In this document: positions 1 to 25,670 of the stretch, one piece after another | Position numbering within the stretch: position 1 is the first letter of the stretch | Layout of the letters: every line of letters starts with the position of its first letter | Virus record (IMG/VR): IMGVR_UViG_3300013132_000025 | Coordinates: 65,641 to 129,640 of that record | Source of the DNA: a virus | Strand: one strand, 5' to 3' | Length of the DNA: 64,000 nt | Program-made: the position numbers and the translations under genes | Notes under the pieces: model-generated | Databases searched by the model: none | Told to the model about the DNA's origin: nothing | Seen by the model: only the letters and a program-made list of their open reading frames with translations

Positions 1-3000
1 TCTGTTGAGAATAGTTTTTTCTCGGCTGATTTCTATCAGCATACATAAATCTTACAGAACTAACCGGAATTCCCGCTTCTTTTGCAGCATTCATCCATAC
101 ATCTTTGTGTCCTTCTGGATTAACTGCCTCTTCTTCAAAAGGATATTCTGGCCTATTGTTTTCTGCAAAATTATACCATTCACCCTCTCCTCCAGTAATT
201 TTATGATATTCCTCTGGAGAAGTCATATGAATAAGATCTTTAGTCTCTGGGTTATATAAGCCGCGCCAATTTGGAAATCCTCCAATATCCCAGTGAGTGT
301 CATTCCATTCTTTTGTTGGCTCATCATCATCTTCGTCATCATAATAAATACGATCAGGATCAGATTGTGCAATTTCCATCTGACCATGCTGGTTGATGAT
401 TGCAGCATTGTATCCCCTTATCCAGTGAGAAGTTTTTACACTTCCAGTTTTAGTATCATAACCCCCATGCTCTCTTTCCCAAGAATTTAAAGGACGTTTT
501 CTTTCATAAATTCTTCTTGCCCTCTGGACTTCTTCTGGCATTTCTAAATCGGCAATATTTAGATCTTCTAAATGACCTGTTTGATTATTGAGAACACGAA
601 TAGAATCTAGTTCTATTCCGGTTTGTTCTGCTAACTGTTTCCAAAATGCTTCCATCCTGTCTCGCTCATCCTGATCCAAACTCTTAAAGTTGTAATCAGT
701 TTCATCCCAAAAGTCTGGATGAGACATATGGATAAAATCTTTTGTTACTGGATTATAAAGGCCTCTTGCTGTATGATGATTATAATAGTGAGTGCGACTA
801 TCTTTATCTGCAACAGATTCTCTCATGGATTTTGTGCCAAGATCGTTTATATATTCAGCAGTAACGCCGCCATGAGTTAGTTTGTCATTGAAGCCCACAT
901 CCATATGCCACACATCTGTTTCTGGGTCTCTAAGAGCGACGGCTGCGTGATATCCATCTACCCAGTAAGATAGTTTAGACATATAATCTAGGGCCATTAC
1001 AACGGCTGCTTTTTCAGAAAACCCACTTTTTATTAAAGATTTTTCTATTTTTTCTTGAAAATCTATTTTTTCTGAAAAAGAACGTTTTTCCGTTAAAAAC
1101 TTAGAATTAGCAAATTTTATTTCGATATCGTCTTCTCCATCCCAATTGTCCCAATCTTTTTGCTTTGGAGAAGAGTTATCAAATAATTGTAATTGTTGCG
1201 GTTTTTCTTTTTCATCAATAAGATTTACAAGTTCTGGATCTATTTTTTCATTAAACATAACAACATCTTTATCTTCAGCATCTTTAGGGTGATACATTAA
1301 TGAAAAACGTTTAATTGGAATTTCAGATTTAGAATTTTTAGCAGCATTTAACCAAGTTTGTTGATGTTCTTCCAACGAGGAATCAAAATTATTTTTTCCT
1401 GTAATATATTCAGGAATAACAATCTTTCCATTTTTTAATCTTTTTGCCCATTCTTTTTTTACTTTTTCATATTCTGATGGGTTTGTCATATGGATTAGAT
1501 GACCTGTTGTTGGATTATAAAGACCACGGTGGGTGTATGGAGCAAAAACATCTCCATGGATAACTCTTTCATTTTTTCCATATTTCATAACCGGATAACC
1601 TAACGGGCTATCATAGATAACAGCAGAATGATATCCATCTAAATAATTAGATTTTTTCTCAGGCAGACCCTTACTACTTTGCCCTTTAACGTATTCACAG
1701 GCTTGGGCGCGAATCATCCCTTCCGGTGGTTCTATTGATCCATTGCAAATGCCTTGCATATAGCGGTACTGCGCTTTACTTCTTGCCGGGGCTTCTTTTT
1801 TTATCCACTTAGATTTTTTATTCCACGGAACGGGATCACTATCTAATACTATTTTGAACCCGGTTGATGGTATTCCACTTTTTTCAATTCCCTCTTTCCA
1901 GTCGTTCATAATTGGTTGAAAATTTTGTTTAATATCATAGTGCCATCCGGTTGATCCAAAGTTATTCCAATCTGGGTGAGTAAGGTGTTCTATTACTCCA
2001 GTTGGAGGATGATATATCCCTCTCATAACGTGGCCTAGATATCCATTACCAAAAATTCCATCGTCGCCCTGCAATTCATCATGTGTCTTTTTTATTTCTG
2101 GATTTTCATCAAGCACTTGTTGCATTAATTGATAATGCTCATACAGATTGCCCTTATCGTCCCACCCACCTTCTCCATTTGCTGTACCATCATCTGTTTT
2201 AGCAATCCACTCTCCCGTTATTGGATCCCTGACATTAACAATTGCAACTTTATCATTCCAATACTCTTCATAATCTTCGTTTTTATTGTTTGCTATTTCC
2301 CATTTAGACTGTTTTAAACTAGGGTCTATGGTGTATCCACCAGTCATTCCGGGGTTCAAACTAGTTAGATTTTGTTGAGGACTTGTGTGATATAATTTAA
2401 TAGAAGAAATTTTCCACTTAGATTCTACAGATGGCAATGGCAATCTTCTTTTTGAACCATGATCTTCATAATATTTATCAATAATAGATTTAACATCTTC
2501 ATCAACATCTTTATTTGCCATAGAAAAGTTAATCCAACGAGGTTTATAGACTGGATCAGATTTTTCAATAAGAGGATATTTTCTCATGAAATCGGCAAAT
2601 TTGTTTGCATCTATTTCCATAGGATGTTCAAGATAGTTTTCTTTAAATTTTCTTTCTACTTCTTCGTCAGAAAGCCCAGAGATATCTGTAGGATCAAAGT
2701 AAGAATCTCTTAACTCTTGTGTAAATCGGCCCTCTTGATCCTGATAGGCATGTTGAAGTTCGTGCCACAGGGCTTCGTTAGCAGACTCAGCAGAGATTAG
2801 GGGATTGATGTGAATACTTCCTGCGTTATTTGAGGTAGCCGCTTCGTGGGTGCCCAAAGGAGTTCTCCTCCAATGTCTCATACTTATGTCATCAGTTGGG
2901 GCACTCTTGGGGTCAACTGTAAAAACATTATATCTTCCCTTGACTGGGAAATCTGGATGATTAAGAACCTTTTCAAGATTTTTGTAATTTAGTTTCCAGC

Positions 3001-5236
3001 GGTGTCCTCTTACCTCTGGGTTCCATTTATATCTTTCTTCTAGATATTCTTGAGTTGGCTCTTCTGATTTTTCATAACCTTTTGCATATTCTTCTGCTTT
3101 TTCTGCTGGAGGAACAGCAATCTTCCATTTAGAAAGCGAAACAAAATCTTGTTTTTGAGCCTTTTCTTTTAACTTTTGATTAATAATATGAGCGTTAATT
3201 GGCTTAGGCAATTCATCTTTTATCCATCTCAACACTGCTAATGAAAGTCTAGGATATCTTTTATTAAAATTATTTACAGTTTCTTGCTTATAACGACTGG
3301 GTGATATTGCGTGACCCTTCTCATCTAAGTGACTTAAATATATCTCTGCACCAGCGTCAAAATAACCATCATATGTATTATCTCTTGGTTCATTATAATG
3401 AATACTATTTAAATATGTTGGATATCTATGTTCTCCATAATCTGCTTCTAAAGATTCTTCTGAATGCCCCGCAATCCTGTCATCGTTTGAATGGTACTCA
3501 AAAGAATTTGGTCCATTAAGAACATATTGCATTCCATACACAATTTGATTAGTTTCTGGATCATAAAAATGAATAGTATGGTAAGTTGTATGGTCAGAGA
3601 AACTATTATGTCCAAAATCTTTAACTTCAGTTAGGGAGCGAGTATCTGAATCGCTCCCCATTCTTGCTATTGGAATAACACCATATCTAGAAAATTCAGG
3701 AACAATATCGTTAATAATTCTGTAATTTTGTGGAATTTTATATTGTTCTATATTTCTTACATCTATAGGTTTTGCTCTTTCTGTTGAAACAATAACCCAA
3801 GACTGTTTTTCCATTTGATTTATTAGTTTAGAGTAGAAACCCCAGCCCCCAATAGGATCTTTATATGTATCTGGTTGAGGGTTGTTCTTACGACGAACTT
3901 TTTTCCATTTCTTGCCGTTAACAATAATCTCTTCATCTTCATGCTCTTGAGATGTATCTTCATTTTGAATAGATTCAAAAATTGTTTCAGCAACGGGAGT
4001 GCCATCTGTGTGTTGGCGATACATCCTATTAGCATCTTGACTTTCTGATATTTTCCATTTTGAATTTGTTAAAAGACCTTTTCTTTTTGCAACTTCTTCT
4101 ATTTTTTTATTTGCAAATTCAGCAGAATATGGAGCAGGAAGATTTTTTTGAATCCATGTAAGGATTCTTCTTCCGGCATTAGGATAAAGATTCTGTATTT
4201 CATACATCCTTTCAAAATCTTCATTTGAAAGGTCATGTTTATCTTTTCCAAACTCATGCAAATAAAAAGAGTCTCCTCTAAAGTAACGTTTTGGTCCTTT
4301 ACTATAACCAATATCTACCATTGCAGGATGATGCATTTTAATTGCATTGATATAGGTGCCACCTTCTTTTACCTCTCCAGAATGGGTTTCTCCGTTTCCA
4401 CCCTTATATTCAAGACTAAATGGGATATCTCCCCTTTCAGGATCCCAAAAAGCAATGATATGTGATGGAGAATTTGTTGACATTGGATTTATTGGTTCAT
4501 TATAAGAAACATCATGAGGAGCATTTATTGTTCTTGTTGCGTTTGCGGAAGCAACTGGAATCAGTCCCGTGCCCTTAAAATGATCTACCATAGAAGAAAT
4601 TACAGCAAAAGATTCTGGAATATCTATATTAGAAATCTTTCGCTTAGATTGCTTAAATGGCCCATAAAGTGCCCTCTGCATCAATTGTGCCTGAGTAGGG
4701 ATTGGCGTATCTTTGTTTGCGGCTGCCAACCCTTCATGCAATCCCGGAATAAACCCAACTCTTTGATCGGTAAATCTTCCACGATGAATAGCATATCCTG
4801 TTTGCCCAAGGCACTCTGTTGCTAGAGCCTTTTGCGCGTGAGGACTTGATAGAGCAAAATGAGTTGAGCAGGCATCATTCTCTCCATGCCAGCCAAAGTC
4901 GCCATCAGTTGCTGCGTGACCAAAAACATCATGAACAATCCTGAAGTTAATATTATCTTGGGGAGTCCAAACTGGATGATCTGCGTTTGCTGTAGAAACA
5001 ACAAAATTTCTGTTGTCTCGGATATCACGAATCATATCCGCAGAAGTATTATAAGGTTCTGGATTATCTGTTTCCGTTATGTTTAGGTGTTGCCTAATAT
5101 AATCAGCATGTTTTTTTGACTCGTCTGCCAATTGTTTCCAAGCGTGAACCGCTTTGGGATCATACTTTGGCAAAGCGTCATATCCAACAGCCACATCTTC
5201 AATATTGTGGCGAGAGTGATCCATATTCCATTGCAT
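1..5236 (-). CDS. Giant modular (polyvalent/polyprotein-like) virion protein, partial; >1745 aa, runs off the left edge
   Basis: Manually translated from ATG at 5236 (MQWNMDHSRHNIEDVAVGYDALPKYDPKAV...) with no stop to position 1; absent from the ORF track because it has no stop in the window. Contains an FRIVHDVFGH module, two similar ~180-aa modules, an HELQH...E zincin motif, a DUF3008-like module and four RGxYNPxT modules. Confidence 0.9.
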   Translation of the reverse strand, partial: MQWNMDHSRHNIEDVAVGYDALPKYDPKAVHAWKQLADESKKHADYIRQHLNITETDNPEPYNTSADMIRDIRDNRNFVVSTANADHPVWTPQDNINFRIVHDVFGHAATDGDFGWHGENDACSTHFALSSPHAQKALATECLGQTGYAIHRGRFTDQRVGFIPGLHEGLAAANKDTPIPTQAQLMQRALYGPFKQSKRKISNIDIPESFAVISSMVDHFKGTGLIPVASANATRTINAPHDVSYNEPINPMSTNSPSHIIAFWDPERGDIPFSLEYKGGNGETHSGEVKEGGTYINAIKMHHPAMVDIGYSKGPKRYFRGDSFYLHEFGKDKHDLSNEDFERMYEIQNLYPNAGRRILTWIQKNLPAPYSAEFANKKIEEVAKRKGLLTNSKWKISESQDANRMYRQHTDGTPVAETIFESIQNEDTSQEHEDEEIIVNGKKWKKVRRKNNPQPDTYKDPIGGWGFYSKLINQMEKQSWVIVSTERAKPIDVRNIEQYKIPQNYRIINDIVPEFSRYGVIPIARMGSDSDTRSLTEVKDFGHNSFSDHTTYHTIHFYDPETNQIVYGMQYVLNGPNSFEYHSNDDRIAGHSEESLEADYGEHRYPTYLNSIHYNEPRDNTYDGYFDAGAEIYLSHLDEKGHAISPSRYKQETVNNFNKRYPRLSLAVLRWIKDELPKPINAHIINQKLKEKAQKQDFVSLSKWKIAVPPAEKAEEYAKGYEKSEEPTQEYLEERYKWNPEVRGHRWKLNYKNLEKVLNHPDFPVKGRYNVFTVDPKSAPTDDISMRHWRRTPLGTHEAATSNNAGSIHINPLISAESANEALWHELQHAYQDQEGRFTQELRDSYFDPTDISGLSDEEVERKFKENYLEHPMEIDANKFADFMRKYPLIEKSDPVYKPRWINFSMANKDVDEDVKSIIDKYYEDHGSKRRLPLPSVESKWKISSIKLYHTSPQQNLTSLNPGMTGGYTIDPSLKQSKWEIANNKNEDYEEYWNDKVAIVNVRDPITGEWIAKTDDGTANGEGGWDDKGNLYEHYQLMQQVLDENPEIKKTHDELQGDDGIFGNGYLGHVMRGIYHPPTGVIEHLTHPDWNNFGSTGWHYDIKQNFQPIMNDWKEGIEKSGIPSTGFKIVLDSDPVPWNKKSKWIKKEAPARSKAQYRYMQGICNGSIEPPEGMIRAQACEYVKGQSSKGLPEKKSNYLDGYHSAVIYDSPLGYPVMKYGKNERVIHGDVFAPYTHRGLYNPTTGHLIHMTNPSEYEKVKKEWAKRLKNGKIVIPEYITGKNNFDSSLEEHQQTWLNAAKNSKSEIPIKRFSLMYHPKDAEDKDVVMFNEKIDPELVNLIDEKEKPQQLQLFDNSSPKQKDWDNWDGEDDIEIKFANSKFLTEKRSFSEKIDFQEKIEKSLIKSGFSEKAAVVMALDYMSKLSYWVDGYHAAVALRDPETDVWHMDVGFNDKLTHGGVTAEYINDLGTKSMRESVADKDSRTHYYNHHTARGLYNPVTKDFIHMSHPDFWDETDYNFKSLDQDERDRMEAFWKQLAEQTGIELDSIRVLNNQTGHLEDLNIADLEMPEEVQRARRIYERKRPLNSWEREHGGYDTKTGSVKTSHWIRGYNAAIINQHGQMEIAQSDPDRIYYDDEDDDEPTKEWNDTHWDIGGFPNWRGLYNPETKDLIHMTSPEEYHKITGGEGEWYNFAENNRPEYPFEEEAVNPEGHKDVWMNAAKEAGIPVSSVRFMYADRNQPRKNYSQQ

Positions 5237-17800: not shown

Positions 17801-18121
17801 CTACTCCTCTACCAGAACCTCAATGCTGATTTCGTGGAGCGTGCCGCTCTTGGTGTTGTAAACGGCATCAGGTCGCCACAGACCTTCCCACATGGACTCA
17901 GCGACAGTCCATTTCACCGAATCTAGCGAGCGATGCATCGTAAACCACACCTCACGTTCTCCCGGCTTAGTCTCCACCAGAAGCCATGGACGCTCCTGTT
18001 GAGTAGCAACATCATTACGAAGGTTATCCCAATCAACATCGTGGAAGTTGTATTCGGAGATAGCGTCCCGAATGACCTCGTTCGTAATCTGAATGTCCTC
18101 GGGGAGAGAACTAATGCTCAT
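17801..18121 (-). CDS. Hypothetical protein
   Basis: 106 aa, GAGGAGG RBS. Confidence 0.65.
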   Translation of the reverse strand: MSISSLPEDIQITNEVIRDAISEYNFHDVDWDNLRNDVATQQERPWLLVETKPGEREVWFTMHRSLDSVKWTVAESMWEGLWRPDAVYNTKSGTLHEISIEVLVEE

Positions 18122-18308
18122 CGGAATCCTCCTCGTTTACACGCAACGTGACATAGCCAGCCTCAATGAGAGCGGCAGCCATGCGACCATAAGAACCTTG
18201 GAGCGACCAAGCCATCCCGGTGTCCACAAGGTACTGAAAGAGGTCAATGATGCCATCCTCATCCAACTCACCCTGCTCATACTCCATAATCGAACTGACG
18301 TAATCCAT
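18111..18308 (-). CDS. Conserved small phage protein (W-x-LQG-x-YGR motif)
   Basis: IMEYEQGELD..LFQYLVDTGMAWSLQGSYGRMAAALIEAG; AGGAGG RBS. Confidence 0.7.
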   Translation of the reverse strand: MDYVSSIMEYEQGELDEDGIIDLFQYLVDTGMAWSLQGSYGRMAAALIEAGYVTLRVNEEDSDEH

Positions 18309-18382
18309 TTCTGCCTCCTTTATCACTTGCCCTGTAAGTGTACCGGGTCTATCCATCTAATACAACTATCTGTTTATTCGAC

Positions 18383-18598
18383 CTACCACTCAAAGCGAGT
18401 GGATAGAATCTTGTGGTCAGGAAACAAACAACGAACCTGCTCAGTAGCGCGGTCCATCATCTCAACGATGATACCCTCGTCACTTAGGTCTGACCAAACG
18501 TAGTCAAGCGTGTCCTCATTCTGCTCGGTCAGCGAAGCCTCATAAACAAACTCGTCAGGCTCACCCGACTCGCTAATCATCTCAACAATAACGAACAT
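18383..18598 (-). CDS. Acidic hypothetical protein
   Basis: 71 aa, abuts upstream gene. Confidence 0.6.
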   Translation of the reverse strand: MFVIVEMISESGEPDEFVYEASLTEQNEDTLDYVWSDLSDEGIIVEMMDRATEQVRCLFPDHKILSTRFEW

Positions 18599-18943
18599 TT
18601 AGATGCGCTCCTCGCTCATAGACTCTCGGTGAACTCGCTCAACTTCCTGCTCAGTCACCCAAGCATAGAAACTCTCTCGGGACTCCTCCTCGGCCTCAGC
18701 CTGAGCAAGAATGTCCTTCCATTCCTCGGAGTCTGTGACATAGGACTCAGCATCAACGTCAGCAGAATACTGTCGCTGTGCAGCCTCGGCCATACCAATG
18801 CGATACTCAGCCCACAGGCTAAGAGCCTCGTCCAGAATAACGAACTGCTCAACGGTCAGGTCGCCGTTTACAGTCAGGTCGTCAAGGCGGTGGTACAGAG
18901 TAGTCGCCTTATCCTGAATCTCTACAGTATCGTCGTGCATCAT
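18599..18943 (-). CDS. Acidic hypothetical protein
   Basis: 114 aa, AAAGGAG RBS; promoter TTGCGC-17-TATGCT at 18974-19002. Confidence 0.65.
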   Translation of the reverse strand: MMHDDTVEIQDKATTLYHRLDDLTVNGDLTVEQFVILDEALSLWAEYRIGMAEAAQRQYSADVDAESYVTDSEEWKDILAQAEAEEESRESFYAWVTEQEVERVHRESMSEERI

Positions 18944-19010
18944 GGTTCTATCTCCTTTCGTGCTTGCTCGTCAAGCATACAGACTTGACTCTCAAAGCGC
19001 AAGTGCCTGT

Positions 19011-19379
19011 TTATACCACTTCCCACTCGTTAGGAAACCAATGCGAGGCAACTTGCATCTCTCGCTTCCACGAACGCTCCTCCTCCACACACTCAGAGAA
19101 TCGCTCAATGATGAGCAGACCCATCGCAATCAAGTCCTTCTCATCTGTATCAATCTGGTTCATGGTGCAGTATGAAGCATCCTCGGCATACTCCCAATCG
19201 CCATTCTCTCGCGTGAGGACCGTAAACCTCAGCAGAGGCTCGTCAGTAGGGTCCGTGGGGTCGAAGTCCCCATACCAACCCTCACCGATGTAATCCCACT
19301 CAACCTTGACAGTCCCATCATCGTTAGTTGCAGTAATGGGAATAAACGACTCAATGTTGTCAGTCCAATCCTTCATCAT
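19011..19379 (-). CDS. Conserved acidic phage protein
   Basis: IGEGWYGDFDPTDPTDEPLLRF..DASYCT motif; AGGAGG RBS. Confidence 0.7.
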   Translation of the reverse strand: MMKDWTDNIESFIPITATNDDGTVKVEWDYIGEGWYGDFDPTDPTDEPLLRFTVLTRENGDWEYAEDASYCTMNQIDTDEKDLIAMGLLIIERFSECVEEERSWKREMQVASHWFPNEWEVV

Positions 19380-20035
19380 TTCCTCCTAATGTCCGTAGTG
19401 GTCGGGGTGACTCATTCGATACTTGGCCTCCTGCTTCATATCTGAGATACAAGTCGCATCACAGCGAATGGGGAAACCCACAGTCACCACCTTATAGATA
19501 AGCACGCTCAGAATGACAGAGAGCGAAGCGTACAGCATAAACTTCCACATCACTTCCCCTTCCATTGGGTATAAGTCCCGGTTATCTCCTCGTAGATATC
19601 GAAAGGCTCGTCAAGTGTGTGCCCCGCATCATCTCGGTAGCCACAGTCGTCGTTGCTTCCAACATCGCAAGCAAGATAACATGCGAGACCTCGGAAGTAG
19701 TAGTCAGGCTCTAGCATGTTTATTCATCTCCCTTCCAGATAGACCATTCCTCGCCCAACTCCCACTCACTACTGGGAGCCTCGCAAGCGAGGTCAAGTGC
19801 CGCATCCTTACTGTCTGCCTCAATCTCAATATACGCATCAGTTCTGATAATGTAAAGGGGCATGTTTATACCTCCTTCACATCAAGGTCGTTGCCATAGA
19901 TGAAGTCAATGATGGAGGCGTCCTCGGTGCCTACGCGACCCTTAGTAAACAACTCCTTGGCCTCATCAGCACTATTCACCTCAACCTGAGTCTGCAACAT
20001 CTGAGTCTCAGTCCAAGTAAGAGTATAAACGGGCA

Positions 20036-20251
20036 TCATGCCACCTCCTCGGGATAGCCAGCCTGAGAACGAATAGAATCAATCATTGACTCTAAACGCT
20101 CAACATGCTTCTTATCGTCAGCGTTGTCATAAACATCGTGGAACGGTGAGTCCAGAATCTCCTGAATATTCTGCCCCAAAGTCCAGAGAATGTAATCCAC
20201 ATCCTCAACGGGACCGCTAATGGTAAGAATGTTCTGGCACCAACTAGACAT
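20036..20251 (-). CDS. Short protein with YubB/Api92-like N-terminus
   Basis: MSSWCQNILTISG resembles the MPNWCxNxLxIxG start. Confidence 0.45.
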   Translation of the reverse strand: MSSWCQNILTISGPVEDVDYILWTLGQNIQEILDSPFHDVYDNADDKKHVERLESMIDSIRSQAGYPEEVA

Positions 20252-20254
20252 TCT

Positions 20255-20581
20255 CTAATCCTCCCACTCGTCGTCGTCCTCGTTGTCCATCTCGTAGTCG
20301 AACTCAACGATGAGGCGAGCCACACGACCATCCCTGTCATACTCAACGTACACAGGATAAACGCCATCGCCCCAGCCGGTGCTAGTGCAGACAGCATCCG
20401 AGAAACGACCATTAGTAGCGAACTGACCAGCACGCTCGTCGTTCAGACTAGCCGCACAGGCGCGACCATAAGGGGAGTCATCGTCCCACTCACCGTCAAG
20501 GACATAGCAGGGGTCCACCACGAACACCTGTCCAGAGTCCACCGGGACAACGCCCACCTTCACTCGGGTATTACTCGTCAT
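20255..20581 (-). CDS. DUF4241-like protein
   Basis: VGVVPVDSGQVFVVDPCY..STGWGDGVYPVY. Confidence 0.65.
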   Translation of the reverse strand: MTSNTRVKVGVVPVDSGQVFVVDPCYVLDGEWDDDSPYGRACAASLNDERAGQFATNGRFSDAVCTSTGWGDGVYPVYVEYDRDGRVARLIVEFDYEMDNEDDDEWED

Positions 20582-20636
20582 TGTTAGCCTCCTTTATTGC
20601 TTGCTCGTCAAGTGTACCAGAACTGATTGTCCAATA

Positions 20637-20834
20637 CTACTGCTCGTTTACACGGTCCCTCTGTGCAACGACGGCTTGGAGAATGTCATACACCTCTCCC
20701 TCGTCATAGACCTCGGAGAGAGCCTGCCTCTGCTCATCTGTCACCTCGTCCTCACCCACAACGATAAGGTCGTCCTCGTCGCAGCCACCCCAACTGCCGT
20801 CTGCTGCGCTCATCCAGATAATCCGACGACCCAT
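20637..20834 (-). CDS. Acidic hypothetical protein
   Basis: GGAGG RBS. Confidence 0.6.
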   Translation of the reverse strand: MGRRIIWMSAADGSWGGCDEDDLIVVGEDEVTDEQRQALSEVYDEGEVYDILQAVVAQRDRVNEQ

Positions 20835-20836
20835 GA

Positions 20837-21097
20837 CTAGGCCTCCCGGATAAACGTAGAGAGCGTGTCAATCAGAGCCTCGCGCTCCTCGGCGGTGTCG
20901 GGAAGGGGAATCACAATCGTTCCCACGTTCGTCTTGGGGCCACCAACGACGTTGGACTCCACGATGATGTTTAGACGACCACCGACGATGGGGAAAACCC
21001 CAACCTCGTAGATACGAACGAAGTCGGTGGTGCCGTGGTCGCGCTCAACCTTATAGGTGTAAGGCTTGGTCTGCTCCTCTGCTGCCTTGCCAATCAT
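20837..21097 (-). CDS. Hypothetical protein
   Basis: AAGGAGG RBS, ATGA overlap. Confidence 0.6.
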   Translation of the reverse strand: MIGKAAEEQTKPYTYKVERDHGTTDFVRIYEVGVFPIVGGRLNIIVESNVVGGPKTNVGTIVIPLPDTAEEREALIDTLSTFIREA

Positions 21098-21537
21098 CTT
21101 GCCTCCTTGTATGTCTCGTTGTAAAAGTCCACCATAATCCCGCGATACTTCCGCTCAATGATGGTGCTTGCAACATCATACACCACCTCAACGAAAGAAT
21201 CGCTAAGGGCGTTTGTACGGTCAAACCAGAACGGAAGGTACTCGTCCATCAGAACGTCCAACAGTTGCGTCGGGAGAGGAAAGAACAGGTCGTAGTAAGG
21301 GCGCTGACCGTCCCAATACTCCCAAGCCGTCTTAGCGAACACACGACCGACATACTCAGGGTCATTTCCATTTCCGTAGATGGCAACCCCATGAATGCTC
21401 TGGTCAAACGGGTCCACATAAGGCGAAAAGTTTATACCAGCATCGCATTCCACGGTCTCCTGTAAGGTCTCGCGGAAGTCCTGCTCTACGAACCTCTCGG
21501 TCTTGATACGCTGCTCGGCATCACACATTAGTCCCAC
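21094..21537 (-). CDS. Hypothetical protein
   Basis: ~147 aa in operon. Confidence 0.6.
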   Translation of the reverse strand: MGLMCDAEQRIKTERFVEQDFRETLQETVECDAGINFSPYVDPFDQSIHGVAIYGNGNDPEYVGRVFAKTAWEYWDGQRPYYDLFFPLPTQLLDVLMDEYLPFWFDRTNALSDSFVEVVYDVASTIIERKYRGIMVDFYNETYKEAR

Positions 21538-21692
21538 CCATTTACACGGGCCGACTGCTTGGCCTGACGGCGCTCGGTGCGACGGCTCTTGTTGCCATGA
21601 ACCTGAGAGCGAGGAACAGCAATCCCTGTGTGACCAGAGATGCCAAGTTCCTGCCTCATGGCTCGGCGTTGCTTGTTGGTAAGGTTTCTCAT
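21528..21692 (-). CDS. 54-aa Arg/Lys-rich peptide (not in ORF track)
   Basis: MRNLTNKQRRAMRQELGISGHTGIAVPRSQVHGNKSRRTERRQAKQSARVNGWD; GGGAG RBS; promoter TTGTTC-17-TATGCT at 21720-21748. Confidence 0.6.
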   Translation of the reverse strand: MRNLTNKQRRAMRQELGISGHTGIAVPRSQVHGNKSRRTERRQAKQSARVNGWD

Positions 21693-21975
21693 CTTATCTC
21701 CCTTGATTGATGCCTAGGCAGCATACATCATAAGACTGACTAGAACAAGTGCCTGTTTATTTGATAAACTCATTCACAAGTTCGTTGAGGTCAATCTCGT
21801 CAATCCAATAACCGTACGAGCCTAGATACTGACCAGCAGCGTCGTAAACAGATGCACTACTGCCACCTCCATCGAACTAAACGAGTTCCAAAACCTGTTG
21901 AGGGTCGTCCTCGGAATGAACGTAAACGTGAGTAGCCTCAAACTCAGAGTAAGTAAAAGCCATTGTCTTTCTCCT

Positions 21976-22452
21976 TTATCCGTACACCACACTACCGAAA
22001 GCGGCAACCTGCACAATGCAGTCAGCCGCATCGCCGTCAATCATGCCGGGGTCGTTCTCCTGCACGGCACGACGAATGTAGCCGGTGATGGTGTTATTTG
22101 CCATATGACTGTTCTCATCCAGAAACTTCTGGATGGCCTCGGTGATGTTGGTGGCGTTGATGGTGTAAACATTGACCTCGCCACTACCCTCATCACGCTC
22201 AACAATGTCGGTGACAGTAACCTGCTGCCAGCGTTCGAAACCATCCGGGGTCTCAGCCTTCTTAGCAACAAGGTTATTCAGTTCCGCCCAATAGTAGCAG
22301 ACACCATAAGAGCCATCGAAAGCACTCACAAGAATGCAATCAACCATAGCCTCGGTGATAGGAAGTTGCGTGGTGACAACGCCAACAACCTTAGAGTTGT
22401 CGTACATCTCAGCCTCGGCTTCCAGCATCTCCCTCACATATGGGTCAGACAT
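21976..22452 (-). CDS. Conserved hypothetical phage protein
   Basis: AFDG..YYWA..IDGDAADCIVQVAAFGSVVYG; AAAGGAG RBS. Confidence 0.7.
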   Translation of the reverse strand: MSDPYVREMLEAEAEMYDNSKVVGVVTTQLPITEAMVDCILVSAFDGSYGVCYYWAELNNLVAKKAETPDGFERWQQVTVTDIVERDEGSGEVNVYTINATNITEAIQKFLDENSHMANNTITGYIRRAVQENDPGMIDGDAADCIVQVAAFGSVVYG

Positions 22453-22529
22453 TGTGTTTCTCCTTTCGTAGTTCATCTGAATAGATGATATCAAACAGAC
22501 CAACTCAGCACAAGAAAGTGTTTATACGA

Positions 22530-22808
22530 CTAGGCGCTAAACATCTGATGGTAATGCTCCTCGGGGGTGAGGATGTTTAGGCCGTAACGAAAATGACCGG
22601 GACCAAACCAGATTGGGTTACGGTACTCATCACTCATACGATGCCGCCGATAGTCATTCCAGATAGTCGCCGGGTGACTCCACAACTCGCAAACGTAATC
22701 CTCAATGTCATGGTAGTTTACACTATCCATAGAGATGATGTATTCCTCTACGAAATCCCAGAACAACTCATCAGACCTACCATCATATCCGCCAGCAACG
22801 TAAGCCAC
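22530..22808 (-). CDS. Hypothetical protein
   Basis: GAGGAGAG RBS, GTG start. Confidence 0.55.
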   Translation of the reverse strand: MAYVAGGYDGRSDELFWDFVEEYIISMDSVNYHDIEDYVCELWSHPATIWNDYRRHRMSDEYRNPIWFGPGHFRYGLNILTPEEHYHQMFSA

Positions 22809-22842
22809 AATCTCTCCTCTCCTATAAACTTGTTGATAAAAG

Positions 22843-22942
22843 CACCCCTAGCGGGAGTCGAACCCGCGATAAACCTCCGCATAAACATCACAAGCGTCCT
22901 TGTGAATGTCCCGGCGTCGTTGCCATCTAGACCATTAGGGGC
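22843..22942 (-). ncRNA. tRNA-like element with the anticodon arm replaced by a long hairpin
   Basis: Acceptor GCCCCTA/TAGGGGT, D-arm GTC-TAGATGGCAAC-GAC, T-arm GCGGG-TTCGACT-CCCGC; anticodon region CCG..ACATTCACAAG-GACG-CTTGTGATGT..CGG; no encoded CCA. Confidence 0.7.
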
Positions 22943-23244
22943 CACATTATAGACGGTTCCACACAGGGGCTTGATGCTCCTAAAAACAATGCCTCTGCCG
23001 TCACCGACAACCGAACCCTTAGTTAGTTTATACACAGATGGCCCCGAGCGACGGCTAGTTCTTAGATGGTGCCGAATAACACCACGCTCATCTATGTATG
23101 TTTAGACTGCTTATCATTTATGGCTCTCGCGCTCATCGTCCCACAATGGTTGATGAGATTTCCCGACCTACCAATCGGTTTCTTACGGAGATTCCTCCAC
23201 CCCACTAGGTCAAAGGTGGTAGCCCTCGCCTAGTCGGTCGTGAA
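22943..23244 (-). ncRNA. ~300-nt structured non-coding RNA between the hammerhead and the tRNA-like element
   Basis: No credible ORF. Stems ATACATAGATG/CATCTGTGTAT, GAGCG/CGCTC, TGGTG/CACCA, CTCATC/GATGAG, GACGG/CCGTC; possible pseudoknot ACTAGG/CCTAGT plus CCACC/GGTGG. Confidence 0.5.
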
Positions 23245-23296
23245 AGCCGTTGATGCCCGTAGGCATTTCGTCCTCTAAGGACTCATCAGAACGGCT
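23245..23296 (-). ncRNA. Type I hammerhead ribozyme
   Basis: AGCCGTT-CTGATGA-GTCCT TAG AGGAC-GAAA-TGCC TACG GGCA-TC-AACGGCT; intact core, AUC cleavage triplet, predicted cut between 23252 and 23251. Confidence 0.9.
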
Positions 23297-23301
23297 AAAA
23301 A

Positions 23302-23451
23302 CTACAGTTCTATCGTGGAAGCACCATCAGTCTGCAACTCCATGACCCACCCCTCACGCCACTCATTTATAGCACAAGCCTCACCAAAAGACGCATAAGG
23401 ACCGAAAGCGGTATATCCATCTGAAAGATTACCAGCGAGAAAGACAAACAT
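23302..23451 (-). CDS. 49-aa hypothetical protein (not in ORF track)
   Basis: MFVFLAGNLSDGYTAFGPYASF..., AGGAG RBS; stop 5 nt before the hammerhead. Confidence 0.55.
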   Translation of the reverse strand: MFVFLAGNLSDGYTAFGPYASFGEACAINEWREGWVMELQTDGASTIEL

Positions 23452-23503
23452 TCTTACTCCTCTCTTTGATTACTCTACGAGAATACCACCTCGGCTCAGA
23501 AAG

Positions 23504-23755
23504 TCAAGAGCCTGAATAAACGTAGGATATCTGAGCCTCTACCTCATCAGCATGACGCTCATCAAGAAACCGATTGTCCGGTGCGCCCCATATGCTCTGC
23601 CCCATGATGTTAGAAGCCGCAGCCTTGGAAGCATCCAGAAGCGAAGTCACTAGAGACATAGCATCCTTTGGGTCCATACGAAGTATAAACCCGTTACGTT
23701 CGTTACCTGAATGGATAACTACTTCATCTTTGTAAACCGCAACAAACAAACTCAT
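23504..23755 (-). CDS. Hypothetical protein
   Basis: GAGG RBS; promoter TTGACA-17-TAGTAT at 23792-23820. Confidence 0.6.
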   Translation of the reverse strand: MSLFVAVYKDEVVIHSGNERNGFILRMDPKDAMSLVTSLLDASKAAASNIMGQSIWGAPDNRFLDERHADEVEAQISYVYSGS

Positions 23756-23838
23756 ACCGTTGCCTCGTCTATCTGCTTGCCACACACCTAGATACTACAG
23801 GCCCCCTCCCCCAATGTCAAGGGAAGGGGGCAAGGTGT

Positions 23839-24336
23839 TTAGATGGCAGCGCCCATGAAGTCCTCATTCGGCACCTCAACAACACCACCGACAATCTCCA
23901 CCTCCACAAAGGCGGGGACAGGCTCGGAAAAAGAAGCGGTGGTAGCCTCGCCGGTCAGCACCTTAGCAACCTTGTCCAGCCTGTCACGAAGGGCCTTGTT
24001 CTCAGCCTCCACAGCCTCTAGACGCTGAATAAACGAGATGCTAACAGTCTCATCATCCATAGACTCGCTAATCTTGCCCTCAATAATCCACTCAACGCGA
24101 GTGTCGAAGTCCTCAATGTCGTCGGACTCAAAGGTGCGCCAACGCAGCGCCTCCTCAATCTGGTCTGAGATATCAAGGTTGTTGTCAAGGTATTCCTGAA
24201 CACGACCGTCAATATCTGCCTCATCAACGACATTCTCAGCAACATCTCGGATAAACGACTCGTTGTTGTAAACCGCATCGGCGGCCTTCTCATCAACGAG
24301 GGTCTCAATGTCAGCGGGCCAATCCTCAAAACTCAT
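23839..24336 (-). CDS. Highly acidic helical/coiled-coil protein
   Basis: Very D/E-rich, periodic; AAAGGAG RBS. Confidence 0.7.
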   Translation of the reverse strand: MSFEDWPADIETLVDEKAADAVYNNESFIRDVAENVVDEADIDGRVQEYLDNNLDISDQIEEALRWRTFESDDIEDFDTRVEWIIEGKISESMDDETVSISFIQRLEAVEAENKALRDRLDKVAKVLTGEATTASFSEPVPAFVEVEIVGGVVEVPNEDFMGAAI

Positions 24337-25322: not shown

Positions 25323-25670
25323 TTAGTCGTCGTAGTCGCAGGGAAAAGACTCCTTCTCCAAGTGATAAAGGTAGTCTCCACGGTCTGCTAGGTAGTCGTC
25401 ATAGTCAGCCTCAGCCATCTCACAACAGGTATCAAAAGTGAGTTCCATAGGAGTCCAGAAGTCTCCATCCTCCTTCTCCCCATGCACCTCGGTAATCATG
25501 CGGTATTCCTCCATGACCTCTTGCTCGGTGCCGATGAAGTATGGGATTTCATAGTCCTTGACTATCTTGCCTGTCTCCGGGTCTGTCTCGTACAAACCCC
25601 ACAGGCCCTTATCCGAGATTTCCTCGGCCTGCTTCTGGAAAGCGTACTCAGGCGGGTCATACCATGACAT
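25323..25670 (-). CDS. Acidic hypothetical protein
   Basis: MSWYDPPEY..., GGGGAG RBS. Confidence 0.6.
   Translation of the reverse strand: MSWYDPPEYAFQKQAEEISDKGLWGLYETDPETGKIVKDYEIPYFIGTEQEVMEEYRMITEVHGEKEDGDFWTPMELTFDTCCEMAEADYDDYLADRGDYLYHLEKESFPCDYDD

Follow-up and report, generated by a model that had tools for sequence, protein, structure and literature searches.

The stretch of viral DNA analysed here (the window) comprises 64,000 nucleotides (nt), positions 65,641 to 129,640 of record IMGVR_UViG_3300013132_000025, and forms the right half of that linear record of 129,640 bp, which has 42% G+C and an estimated completeness of about 82%. Within a run of small minus-strand genes, it carries a type I hammerhead ribozyme, a folded RNA that we refer to as the cargo, a conserved block, and an element that resembles tRNA-Glu but has no anticodon loop, referred to below as the mimic (Table 1). 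An earlier sequence-only reading of this DNA had described a hammerhead 5 nt after the stop codon of a small open reading frame (ORF), about 300 nt of ORF-free sequence and a tRNA-shaped element without an anticodon, all on the transcribed strand, and had inferred between them a discrete RNA of about 310 nt with ends set by the ribozyme and by RNase P. Most of this anatomy can be confirmed: the distance from the stop codon, which belongs to an ORF of 49 amino acids (aa), is read directly in the sequence, the tRNA-shaped element is real, with an acceptor stem and a T arm that are conserved between relatives, and all parts lie on the minus strand like the surrounding genes. How the transcript is divided is a different matter, and it is here that our reading departs from the earlier one.

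Table 1. Features at the locus, in window coordinates
Feature	Position	Strand	Details
Candidate sigma-70-like promoter	23480-23507	-	TTGACT, 16 nt, TATTCT, TG before second hexamer; 9/12 matches; upstream of 49-aa ORF
49-aa ORF	23302-23451	-	Stop codon 23304-23302, 5 nt before hammerhead; no Pfam family at E <= 0.01
Type I hammerhead, 52 nt	23245-23296	-	Predicted cut between 23252 and 23251
Cargo domain 1 (type A core), 132 nt	23120-23251	-	Predicted closing helix P1 plus four hairpins
RNA-contig cover	23043-23234	Not given	23043-23222, 23052-23222 and 23048-23234 in three runs
Cargo domain 2	23030-23100	-	11-bp closing helix; single-sequence prediction, no covariation
Conserved block	22943-23028	-	Between cargo and mimic; TATAAT at 22951-22946
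tRNA-Glu-like element without anticodon loop (mimic)	22843-22942	-	Acceptor, D-like region, 12-bp hairpin, T arm, discriminator G
Next gene, 92 aa, GTG start	22530-22808	-	Ribosome-binding site GGAGAGGAGAG; no Pfam family

The elements of the module and their linkage

The hammerhead is compact and complete. Its stem I, in which 23296-23290 form 7 bp with 23251-23245, is open-ended, and the ribozyme is therefore of type I. The CUGAUGA core at 23289-23283 is followed by a stem II of 4 bp with a 5-nt loop, by GAAA, and by a stem III of 5 bp in which the A15.1-U16.1 pair is extended by 4 bp and capped by a tetraloop; AUC serves as the cleavage triplet. The conserved core is present in full across 23289-23252 (C3 U4 G5 A6 N7 G8 A9, G12 A13 A14, A15.1-U16.1, and an H17 that is not G), and among the four distinct versions of the module described below it is invariant apart from a C at the free position N7 in G001. 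A descriptor of our own (core, 4-bp stem II, GAAA, stem III of at least 3 bp, UH, 6-bp stem I) has a single match when both strands of the 129,640-bp record are searched, against none in 200 shuffles with dinucleotides preserved. Alignment of the four versions, in which the window is 78-80% identical to the others over the hammerhead, leaves 99.3% of the cells in its helices paired. Three pairs are changed on both sides (two in stem I and one in stem III), the remaining differences lie in loops or are compensated, and stem I of G002 contains a 2-nt bulge. The earlier claim of an intact type I hammerhead is thus borne out by a complete core, by the descriptor, and by conservation with covariation.

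Four other viral contigs contain look-alike hammerheads that agree with the window's in the sequences of stems II and III. In L003 and L004, a type I hammerhead of the window's stem II/III type is accompanied by a second hammerhead just past a short ORF, which is the paired arrangement described for prophages (PMC3088659); L005 and L006 hold one hammerhead each in the stretch inspected. Hammerheads that flank genes of phages and prophages and cleave in vitro have been described (PMC3088659).

At the opposite end of the module, the mimic combines a 7-bp acceptor stem (with G1-U72, or G1-C72 in G002) with a T arm made of the 5-bp stem GCGGG/CCCGC and the 7-nt loop UUCGACU, which is of the UUCRANY type. 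The variable region measures 9 nt, and no CCA end is encoded, which is uninformative as none of the phage's 11 real tRNA genes encodes one. The place of the anticodon arm, normally a 5-bp stem with a 7-nt loop, is taken by a 12-bp hairpin in the window and by irregular hairpins of 11-15 bp with a 4-nt loop across the versions; the lower stem of this hairpin varies between versions yet folds in each, and its tip is invariant. The mimic is the best-conserved part of the module, with 92-95% identity between versions and 92-93% between the window and the others. In global alignments with the phage's 11 tRNAs it is nearest to tRNA-Glu (58.9), by a narrow margin over tRNA-Ile (56.7), and it has a D-loop/D-stem motif in common with metagenomic genes that we read by eye as tRNA-Glu. 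At 22942-22843, ARAGORN with default settings reports neither a tRNA nor a transfer-messenger RNA (tmRNA), and the Rfam tRNA model, one of the checks proposed with the sequence-only reading, gives no match to the mimic at E <= 10. Allowing introns, ARAGORN proposes a tRNA-Val with a 12-nt 'intron', which we rejected as forced. The mimic lies 24-70 nt before the next ORF in the window, G001 and L040; in G002 the distance to the next convincing ORF is 140 nt.

Several other contigs contain tRNA-like elements of a comparable kind. In the unrelated phage contig L037 (same sequence in L046), a type I hammerhead occupies one intergenic gap and a tRNA-like minihelix the next; the minihelix consists of an acceptor and a T arm with no D or anticodon arm, and the same 22-nt leader and ribosome-binding site follow both the hammerhead and the minihelix. 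By analogy, this suggests that phages may use hammerheads and tRNA shapes as interchangeable cutters, an idea of which the available text of PMC3088659 mentions just the hammerhead part. L036 (also L031 and L048) has an intergenic tRNA-like element with a long extra arm and a central 8-bp hairpin that bears the tip of the mimic (CAAG-GACG-CUUG), and could be a member of a broader class of phage tRNA look-alikes that do not decode. A tRNA-shaped gene in the phage tRNA array of L043 (also L042) is normal in its acceptor, D and T arms, encodes its CCA, and has about 50 extra nt in the anticodon region.

A search with the portal protein returned eight viral loci, and a DNA search of the five longest portal-matched records located the module in four of them, the fifth being a 29.8-kb fragment; over the module, G001 is identical to G004 and G002 to G003. 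A metagenome scan with a pattern built on the mimic returned 23 loci. Three of these carry the module, L032 and L035 in the G002 form and L040 in a new one, and by our own reading the other 20 include 6 real tRNA-Glu genes, the rest being other tRNAs, tRNA-like elements and chance matches. The comparison therefore covers four distinct versions, from the window, G001, L040 and G002, the first three of which share a cargo that we call type A. Pattern scans of viral contigs with the D-arm, a 23-mer of the cargo and the hammerhead stems recovered only the four known contigs or a subset of them; blastn of 22780-23460 against GenBank phages gave no match, and neither the mimic pattern nor the cargo 23-mer had a match in 185,579 prokaryotic species genomes, so that no host copy or prophage was found there. 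The neighbouring 92-aa and 175-aa ORFs had no relatives in a search of viral contigs.

All four versions present the same order of hammerhead, a spacer of 250-309 nt, conserved block and mimic. The genes around them are another matter: in the window and in L040 the module follows the 49-aa gene, whereas in G002 it follows a homologue of the 175-aa gene that lies downstream of it in the window, and precedes a homologue of a gene found about 2 kb upstream in the window. The module is thus seen in two different gene neighbourhoods. The parts stay linked while the surrounding genes change, and this joint travel is the strongest argument for a single module. The linkage of ribozyme, spacer and tRNA-shaped element, which the sequence-only reading had proposed to check in homologues, is kept in all four versions.

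The cargo RNA, the conserved block and their gene context

The spacer between the predicted cut and the mimic extends over 309 nt (23251-22943). It is of about the length that had been proposed but not strictly ORF-free, since it contains a 37-aa GTG ORF in sense, the first part of a GTG ORF of 95 aa that continues across the tRNA-like element, and an ORF of 55 aa in antisense. No ribosome-binding site and no coding pattern of change was found for any of them, and as judged from these features the spacer carries no credible gene.

Its first 132 nt, domain 1 of the cargo, constitute the type A core. The closing helix P1 pairs 23248-23242 with 23128-23122 and shares four nucleotides (23248-23245) with the 7-nt 3' strand of hammerhead stem I, and because of this reuse the ribozyme fold and the product fold are mutually exclusive. 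When the full uncleaved stretch is folded, stem I is present and P1 is absent; when the cleaved product is folded, P1 is present. These models suggest that a change from stem I to P1 would be coupled to cleavage. The minimum free energy (MFE) of domain 1 is -56.6 kcal/mol, with a z-score of -5.27 and none of 200 shuffles as stable, and the MFE structure accounts for 17% of the ensemble. Between the window and G001, the core differs at 14 positions, 10 of them paired, and no pair is broken: six of these ten changes are three double changes in one 6-bp helix, and the other four are of the G-U/G-C type, in P1 and the second helix. Across the three type A versions, all 41 pairs are kept (100% paired) and three have changed in both partners; when the partners are shifted by 1-3 columns, pairing falls from 100% to 36-53%.

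Beyond domain 1 the cargo is more variable. Domain 2 is present in the window phage and in the phage behind the RNA contigs described below and is absent from G001 and L040, so that it appears as an insertion in the alignment; the two domains folded together (23030-23251) reach an MFE of -83 kcal/mol and a z-score of -4.32. Over the 132-nt core, the window is about 90% identical to G001 and L040, whereas the 44% obtained against G002 amounts to no real alignment. The corresponding slot of G002 contains an unrelated multi-hairpin RNA (z-score -3.77), the predicted closing helix of which also uses the freed 5' end. Run against 26 sources (288,738 bases), a covariance model for the type A core retrieves just its three training sequences, with the G002 cargo unmatched at E <= 10. 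On the strength of these predicted folds, the cargo slot appears to be swappable, with two unrelated folded RNAs in sister lineages. Neither the cargo nor its counterparts in the relatives match an Rfam family. The whole window has no match in Rfam 15 at the gathering thresholds, and at E <= 10 the interval 22700-23450 yields nothing beyond the hammerhead, a fragment of a T arm and a plastid match attributed to chance, leaving the cargo (23251-23030) without a family. A possible H-type pseudoknot lies just past the hammerhead (5 bp in the window and 8 bp in G002) and competes with the nested helices.

A search of public runs identified three metatranscriptome runs, from two studies, that hold a small share of the sequence words searched for. 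Each run yields one short contig (185, 175 and 186 nt) with about 90% identity to the window. The contigs are whole, with no run-on into unlike sequence except for 8 letters at one end, and they span both cargo domains minus 17-29 nt on the 5' side and about 13-22 nt on the 3' side. They are identical to the window over 23120-23222, and the differences cluster in the linker and in one hairpin loop of domain 2. That they begin 17-29 nt past the predicted cut is compatible with cleavage and no proof of it. Within 22500-23800, none of the cover falls on the hammerhead, block, mimic or flanking genes, an absence that is not evidence of no transcription there. The search tool rates evidence of this sort as weak, and we take the cover as a hint, strengthened by the agreement of two studies. 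It suggests a stable RNA of about 220 nt in a related phage, with its 5' end at the ribozyme cut and its 3' end at the base of domain 2, some 90 nt short of the mimic. The earlier proposal of a ribozyme-set 5' end is supported in so far as structured RNA from the cut onwards is seen in RNA libraries; the cleavage itself would have to be added by inference.

The conserved block that fills these last 90 nt goes with the mimic and not with the cargo, for G002 keeps the block and has another cargo. Two of its stretches, 17 nt (23014-22998) and 18 nt (22963-22946), are identical in all four versions, and both occur once in the genome. In G001 and G002 (L016 and L017), the block reads TTGACT, 16 nt, TATAAT, an 11/12 match to a sigma-70-like promoter, and L040 has the same two hexamers as read by eye from the alignment. 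In L016 and L017, G1 of the mimic is the seventh nucleotide after TATAAT, with six nt in between, and for this reason the expected transcription start is G1 itself. With such a start in the relatives, the mimic may be made without RNase P or may be the leader of the next mRNA. Short repeats, direct as well as inverted, also occur in the block, and its 3' and 5' parts can pair with each other; it may be a promoter, an RNA structure, or both. A scan of L016 and L017 found no terminator-like site between cargo and mimic or after the mimic. Three further ideas about the block were set aside: that it is a repeated phage promoter, as it is unique in the genome; that a small ORF conserved from a TTG runs through it, as the frame stays open for 14-28 codons and ends differently in each version; and that 17-nt matches to it in four unrelated contigs are meaningful, as these lie inside apparent coding regions and were taken as chance.

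By its PHROG profiles (portal, large terminase, DNA polymerase, exonuclease and thymidylate synthase), the record can be assigned to a tailed phage. Its portal matches those of Gordonia and Mycobacterium phages with genomes of about 150 kb at 40-42% identity, in alignments that cover 75-81% of the protein. The phages with the similar portal are myoviruses, and among isolated phages the relatives of the group are large actinophages; the module-bearing phages themselves form a group of tailed phages of about 130 kb. The phage's 11 real tRNA genes are on the plus strand at 17,835-22,926 of the record, outside the window and opposite to nearly all of the protein genes.

Near the module, a Pfam scan of eight small neighbour genes assigned no family (E <= 0.01). 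The 49-aa ORF has a homologue in L040 at the same position, 4 nt before the L040 hammerhead. Its promoter is a likely source of the transcript that enters the hammerhead, as judged from a consensus match that is not significant alone: a scan of 22300-23900 gave two promoter-like sites against a shuffle mean of 2.0. On the other side, the 92-aa gene begins 34 nt past the discriminator of the mimic (33 nt if the element is taken to end at 22842); L040 lacks this gene, and a homologue of the 175-aa ORF of the window comes after the mimic there. Elsewhere, the record's largest ORF by far is a single one of 3,214 aa, at 1-5236 of the window (genome 61232-70876, minus strand). Two early genes have in common a 13-nt sequence that forms a hairpin, CTTGACGAGCAAG, located a few nt ahead of their ribosome-binding sites (20612 and 18975, minus strand). 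A 12-nt motif of the AAACAGGCACTTG type is repeated at 25323, 21757 and 19011 (minus strand) with a TA...T hexamer about 17 nt further on, and may mark a set of early phage promoters. In L040, a sequence of about 45 nt is repeated near-exactly before two consecutive small genes upstream of the module and probably serves that phage as a promoter or regulatory site.

A proposed portable module and the alternatives to it

We interpret the locus as a portable non-coding module with two functional halves, one made of the hammerhead and the cargo RNA and the other of the block and a pseudo-tRNA-Glu, and assign this reading a probability of roughly 0.55. Transcription would enter the hammerhead from the promoter of the 49-aa gene or, in the G002 lineage, from a promoter-like site right before the ribozyme (L017 1988-1960, minus strand; TTGAAA, 17 nt, TATGAT; 10/12 matches), which ends 13 nt ahead of the hammerhead; there the ribozyme would trim just a short leader and not an upstream mRNA. 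Self-cleavage between 23252 and 23251 would leave a 2',3'-cyclic phosphate on the upstream fragment and a 5'-OH on the downstream product, the first nucleotides of which, freed from stem I, could then pair with 23128-23122 to form P1. P1 would close the compact four-hairpin domain, followed by the second domain in the window phage, and the outcome would be a stable RNA of about 220 nt, from about 23251 to 23030, with its 3' end at the foot of the last domain, probably through trimming. On this reading the RNA is the product of a self-closing, ribozyme-released design, represents a new family, and occupies a slot in which cargos can be exchanged. The block and the pseudo-tRNA-Glu would serve as a tRNA-shaped processing or boundary element before the next gene. 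RNase P and RNase Z would excise the mimic from read-through transcripts, and in the relatives the mimic may also be transcribed from a promoter of its own, with the start at its first nucleotide.

Several observations weigh against this interpretation. No hammerhead model reaches its Rfam gathering threshold in the window or in the relatives: the best match in the window is Hammerhead_3, at 21.9 bits against a gathering threshold of 48.5, and in three relatives the alignment to Hammerhead_1 takes in every model position (1-45 of 45) and scores 28.5-30.2 bits where 34 would be required (E 2.5e-4 to 9e-4). We regard the sub-threshold scores as a limit of the models, because the defining core and helices are all present; nevertheless, the Rfam check proposed with the sequence-only reading came out negative for the ribozyme as it did for the tRNA. 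Self-cleavage at 23252/23251 is a computational prediction, and the switch from stem I to P1 is deduced from the overlap of the two pairings. Covariation lends the mimic no support, its helices being nearly invariant. For the type A core, 21 of 500 shuffles reach the observed covariation values, and that comparison involves three sequences with a structure derived from one of them. There are four distinct versions in all, with the type A cargo in just two well-separated lineages. In the covariation check suggested for the spacer, the core keeps its 41 pairs with three double changes, the controls are modest, and the G002 cargo is unrelated. The RNA contigs give neither strand, true ends nor abundance, and DNA carry-over is possible. 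In the window's own block, TATAAT is kept and the first hexamer is lost, with just 3 nt left before G1; this copy of the promoter is defective, and the block may therefore be RNA rather than promoter. Moreover, a conserved 9-mer in the promoter spacer has several possible partners for pairing: three sites in the upstream block and the 5' end of the cargo once this is freed.

A more far-reaching version of the same idea, which we consider doubtful, would make the hammerhead the dedicated 5'-end maker of a new family of phage non-coding RNAs with swappable cargo, the pseudo-tRNA a decoy, and the whole a two-RNA module for host takeover or anti-defence. Zipping of the stem I strand into the closing helix would then make cleavage irreversible, and a 5'-OH tucked into a helix would be a poor substrate for 5'-end-dependent decay. 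Host factors that recognise tRNAs by their acceptor or elbow, such as tRNA-directed defence enzymes, could be lured away by the non-decoding mimic. The anti-defence or sponge role earlier suggested for the RNA is speculation.

The single early RNA of about 310 nt put forward in the sequence-only reading, which would run from 23251 to an RNase P cut at 22943 that also frees the mimic in the manner of MALAT1-mascRNA, seems to us possible but unlikely. Conservation speaks against one continuous RNA, as only the first 132 nt are conserved, in three of the four versions, and the fourth has an unrelated RNA in their place. In its acceptor and T arm the mimic does have the shape by which RNase P recognises its substrates, other small RNAs of phages are cut by this enzyme (PMC11143913), and with no terminator-like site from cargo to mimic in the relatives, read-through transcripts should exist. 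It is the 3' end that makes the proposal doubtful: the three contigs end at 23043-23052 with no loose end, at least 100 nt short of 22943, compared with 17-29 nt on the ribozyme side. The block that intervenes is conserved in all four versions, and by pairing of its 3' and 5' parts it could protect such a 3' end; against this, it goes with the mimic and not with the cargo, and in the two relatives scanned it is an 11/12 promoter with its +1 on the first nucleotide of the mimic. Plain punctuation of a polycistronic early transcript, with the spacer as filler or remnant and the mimic as a dying tRNA-Glu gene, is in our view improbable. It would suit the commonly intergenic position of phage hammerheads, often in tandem around single genes (PMC3088659), the hammerhead and minihelix that precede the same leader in L037/L046, and a cargo that differs between lineages. 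Filler would not be expected to keep every pair through 10 changes at paired positions of the 132-nt core, to have a strongly non-random fold, or to be covered by RNA contigs that cover the cargo alone; a decaying pseudogene would not be the most conserved part (92-95%) while its neighbours are swapped; and with a promoter-like site directly before the G002 hammerhead, no upstream mRNA needs removal there.

The remaining explanations dispense with a structured RNA, and we find both very hard to sustain. According to one, the core encodes a small plus-strand protein (55 aa at 23066-23233, 37 aa in G001 and L040) and the contigs are its mRNA. The frame is open over the core, offers an ATG in each of the three type A versions and nearly matches the contig cover of 23043-23234, and the contigs are strandless; on the other hand, no Shine-Dalgarno-like sequence is seen before either ATG, all credible genes here are on the minus strand, and G002 has no counterpart. 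Moreover, the 10 nucleotide changes between the window and G001 would alter 6 amino acids in 37 residues, and six of these changes are mirror-image pairs in one hairpin, which is the signature of RNA rather than of coding, and we judge the antisense ORF to be spurious. Even less weight falls on an element acting as DNA, either an attachment site for a host tRNA-Glu gene or, in the case of the block, a site of protein binding or replication. Partial viral tRNA sequences can indeed be phage attachment (attP) sites, as in the HF1-group haloviruses (PMC7230728), and the repeats in the block would fit a binding site. An attP site was dropped as no tyrosine integrase, serine recombinase or resolvase was found in the 82%-complete record; in addition, both acceptor halves and a rebuilt central hairpin are kept rather than just the 3' part of a tRNA, and the mimic pattern is without a match in the 185,579 species genomes.

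Comparison with known systems

The nearest parallels to the first half of the proposed module are the intergenic hammerheads of phages and prophages (Perreault et al. 2011, PMC3088659), in which a hammerhead with the consensus core likewise stands between the genes of a phage transcription unit, on the strand that is transcribed. It differs from them in that a conserved folded RNA rather than a gene follows the ribozyme, the predicted closing helix of this RNA reusing a strand of stem I, and in the linked tRNA mimic, whereas for those hammerheads mRNA processing is proposed and no such partner is reported in the available text.

For the second half, eukaryotic systems offer a precedent. MALAT1-mascRNA and the tRNA-like/miRNA units of murine gammaherpesvirus 68 are tRNA-like signals for 3'-end processing, and the arrangement here resembles them in that a non-decoding tRNA shape stands beside a non-coding RNA and tRNA-processing enzymes could set the ends. 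Unlike in MALAT1-mascRNA, about 90 nt of promoter-like block lie between the mimic and the RNA seen in the libraries, the contigs of which stop at 23043-23052 and not at 22943, although contigs do not reveal true ends. No end protection of the triple-helix type was seen, no search having been aimed at it.

A small self-cleaving ribozyme coupled to a tRNA-type gene in tailed phages is also found in the theta ribozymes, which are of the hepatitis delta virus (HDV)-like class and reportedly abut the tRNA directly. Their proposed role in gut phages is the cleavage of 3' trailers on tRNAs that are real ones, namely suppressors (Kienbeck et al. 2024, PMC10879173). The ribozyme here is instead a hammerhead, it lies 309 nt upstream of the tRNA-like element, and its partner cannot decode; Rfam gave no HDV-like match over the window. 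RNase P also cuts phage RNAs that are not tRNAs, for example the C4 RNA of P1/P7 and M3 RNA (PMC11143913). A dependence of phage non-coding RNA ends on a tRNA-processing enzyme, known for these RNAs, would be shared by the present locus, with the difference that RNase P makes the 5' end there and a ribozyme would do so here, and no sequence or family relation to them is known.

The mimic itself resembles tRNA-Glu in its acceptor, D-region and T-arm sequences and departs from it in the 12-bp hairpin that stands in for the anticodon stem-loop and in its 9-nt variable region. The combination of a tRNA-like T arm and acceptor with other structured RNA recalls tmRNA and YrlA, a bacterial Y RNA that is a stable RNA mimicking tRNA. 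The tmRNA model, however, matches only the T arm, at 18.5 bits against 47, and the acceptor strands of the mimic are about 90 nt apart, within 100 nt downstream of the cargo, so that the cargo is not enclosed between them. In contrast to the YrlA/Ro pairing, the 82%-complete record contains no Ro/TROVE protein (PF05731) and no RtcB (PF01139), and Rfam gave no Y RNA match; a Ro/Y-RNA system and RtcB ligation were dropped for the absence of these families. Circularisation by a phage RNA ligase was likewise dropped, as PF09414 is absent from the record (a search with PF09511 was uninformative, being silent in control genomes too).

Thousands of hammerheads are known in bacteria and phages, and the locus provides a concrete case for what a phage hammerhead may be for, with a ribozyme that fronts a conserved folded RNA and not a gene. 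Additional work has been called for to define the biological purpose of hammerheads (PMC6765202). A literature search of titles and the opening parts of abstracts, with subscription journals outside its range, found no phage cassette of hammerhead, RNA and tRNA mimic, although the supplementary contexts of PMC3088659 (Figures S1-S3 and S6) could hold one. As far as that search shows, phage hammerheads and tRNA-like processing signals are known separately, and what is new is their combination, the reuse of a stem I strand and the RNA itself, which adds a structured RNA without a family assignment. Here a helix strand of the ribozyme would become part of the fold of its own product. Should the mimic prove to be a decoy or a leader element, the known uses of the tRNA shape in phages would widen, and the locus would in any event offer a natural example, from a bacterial virus, of the 'ribozyme - RNA - tRNA' arrangement by which engineered RNAs are given exact ends.

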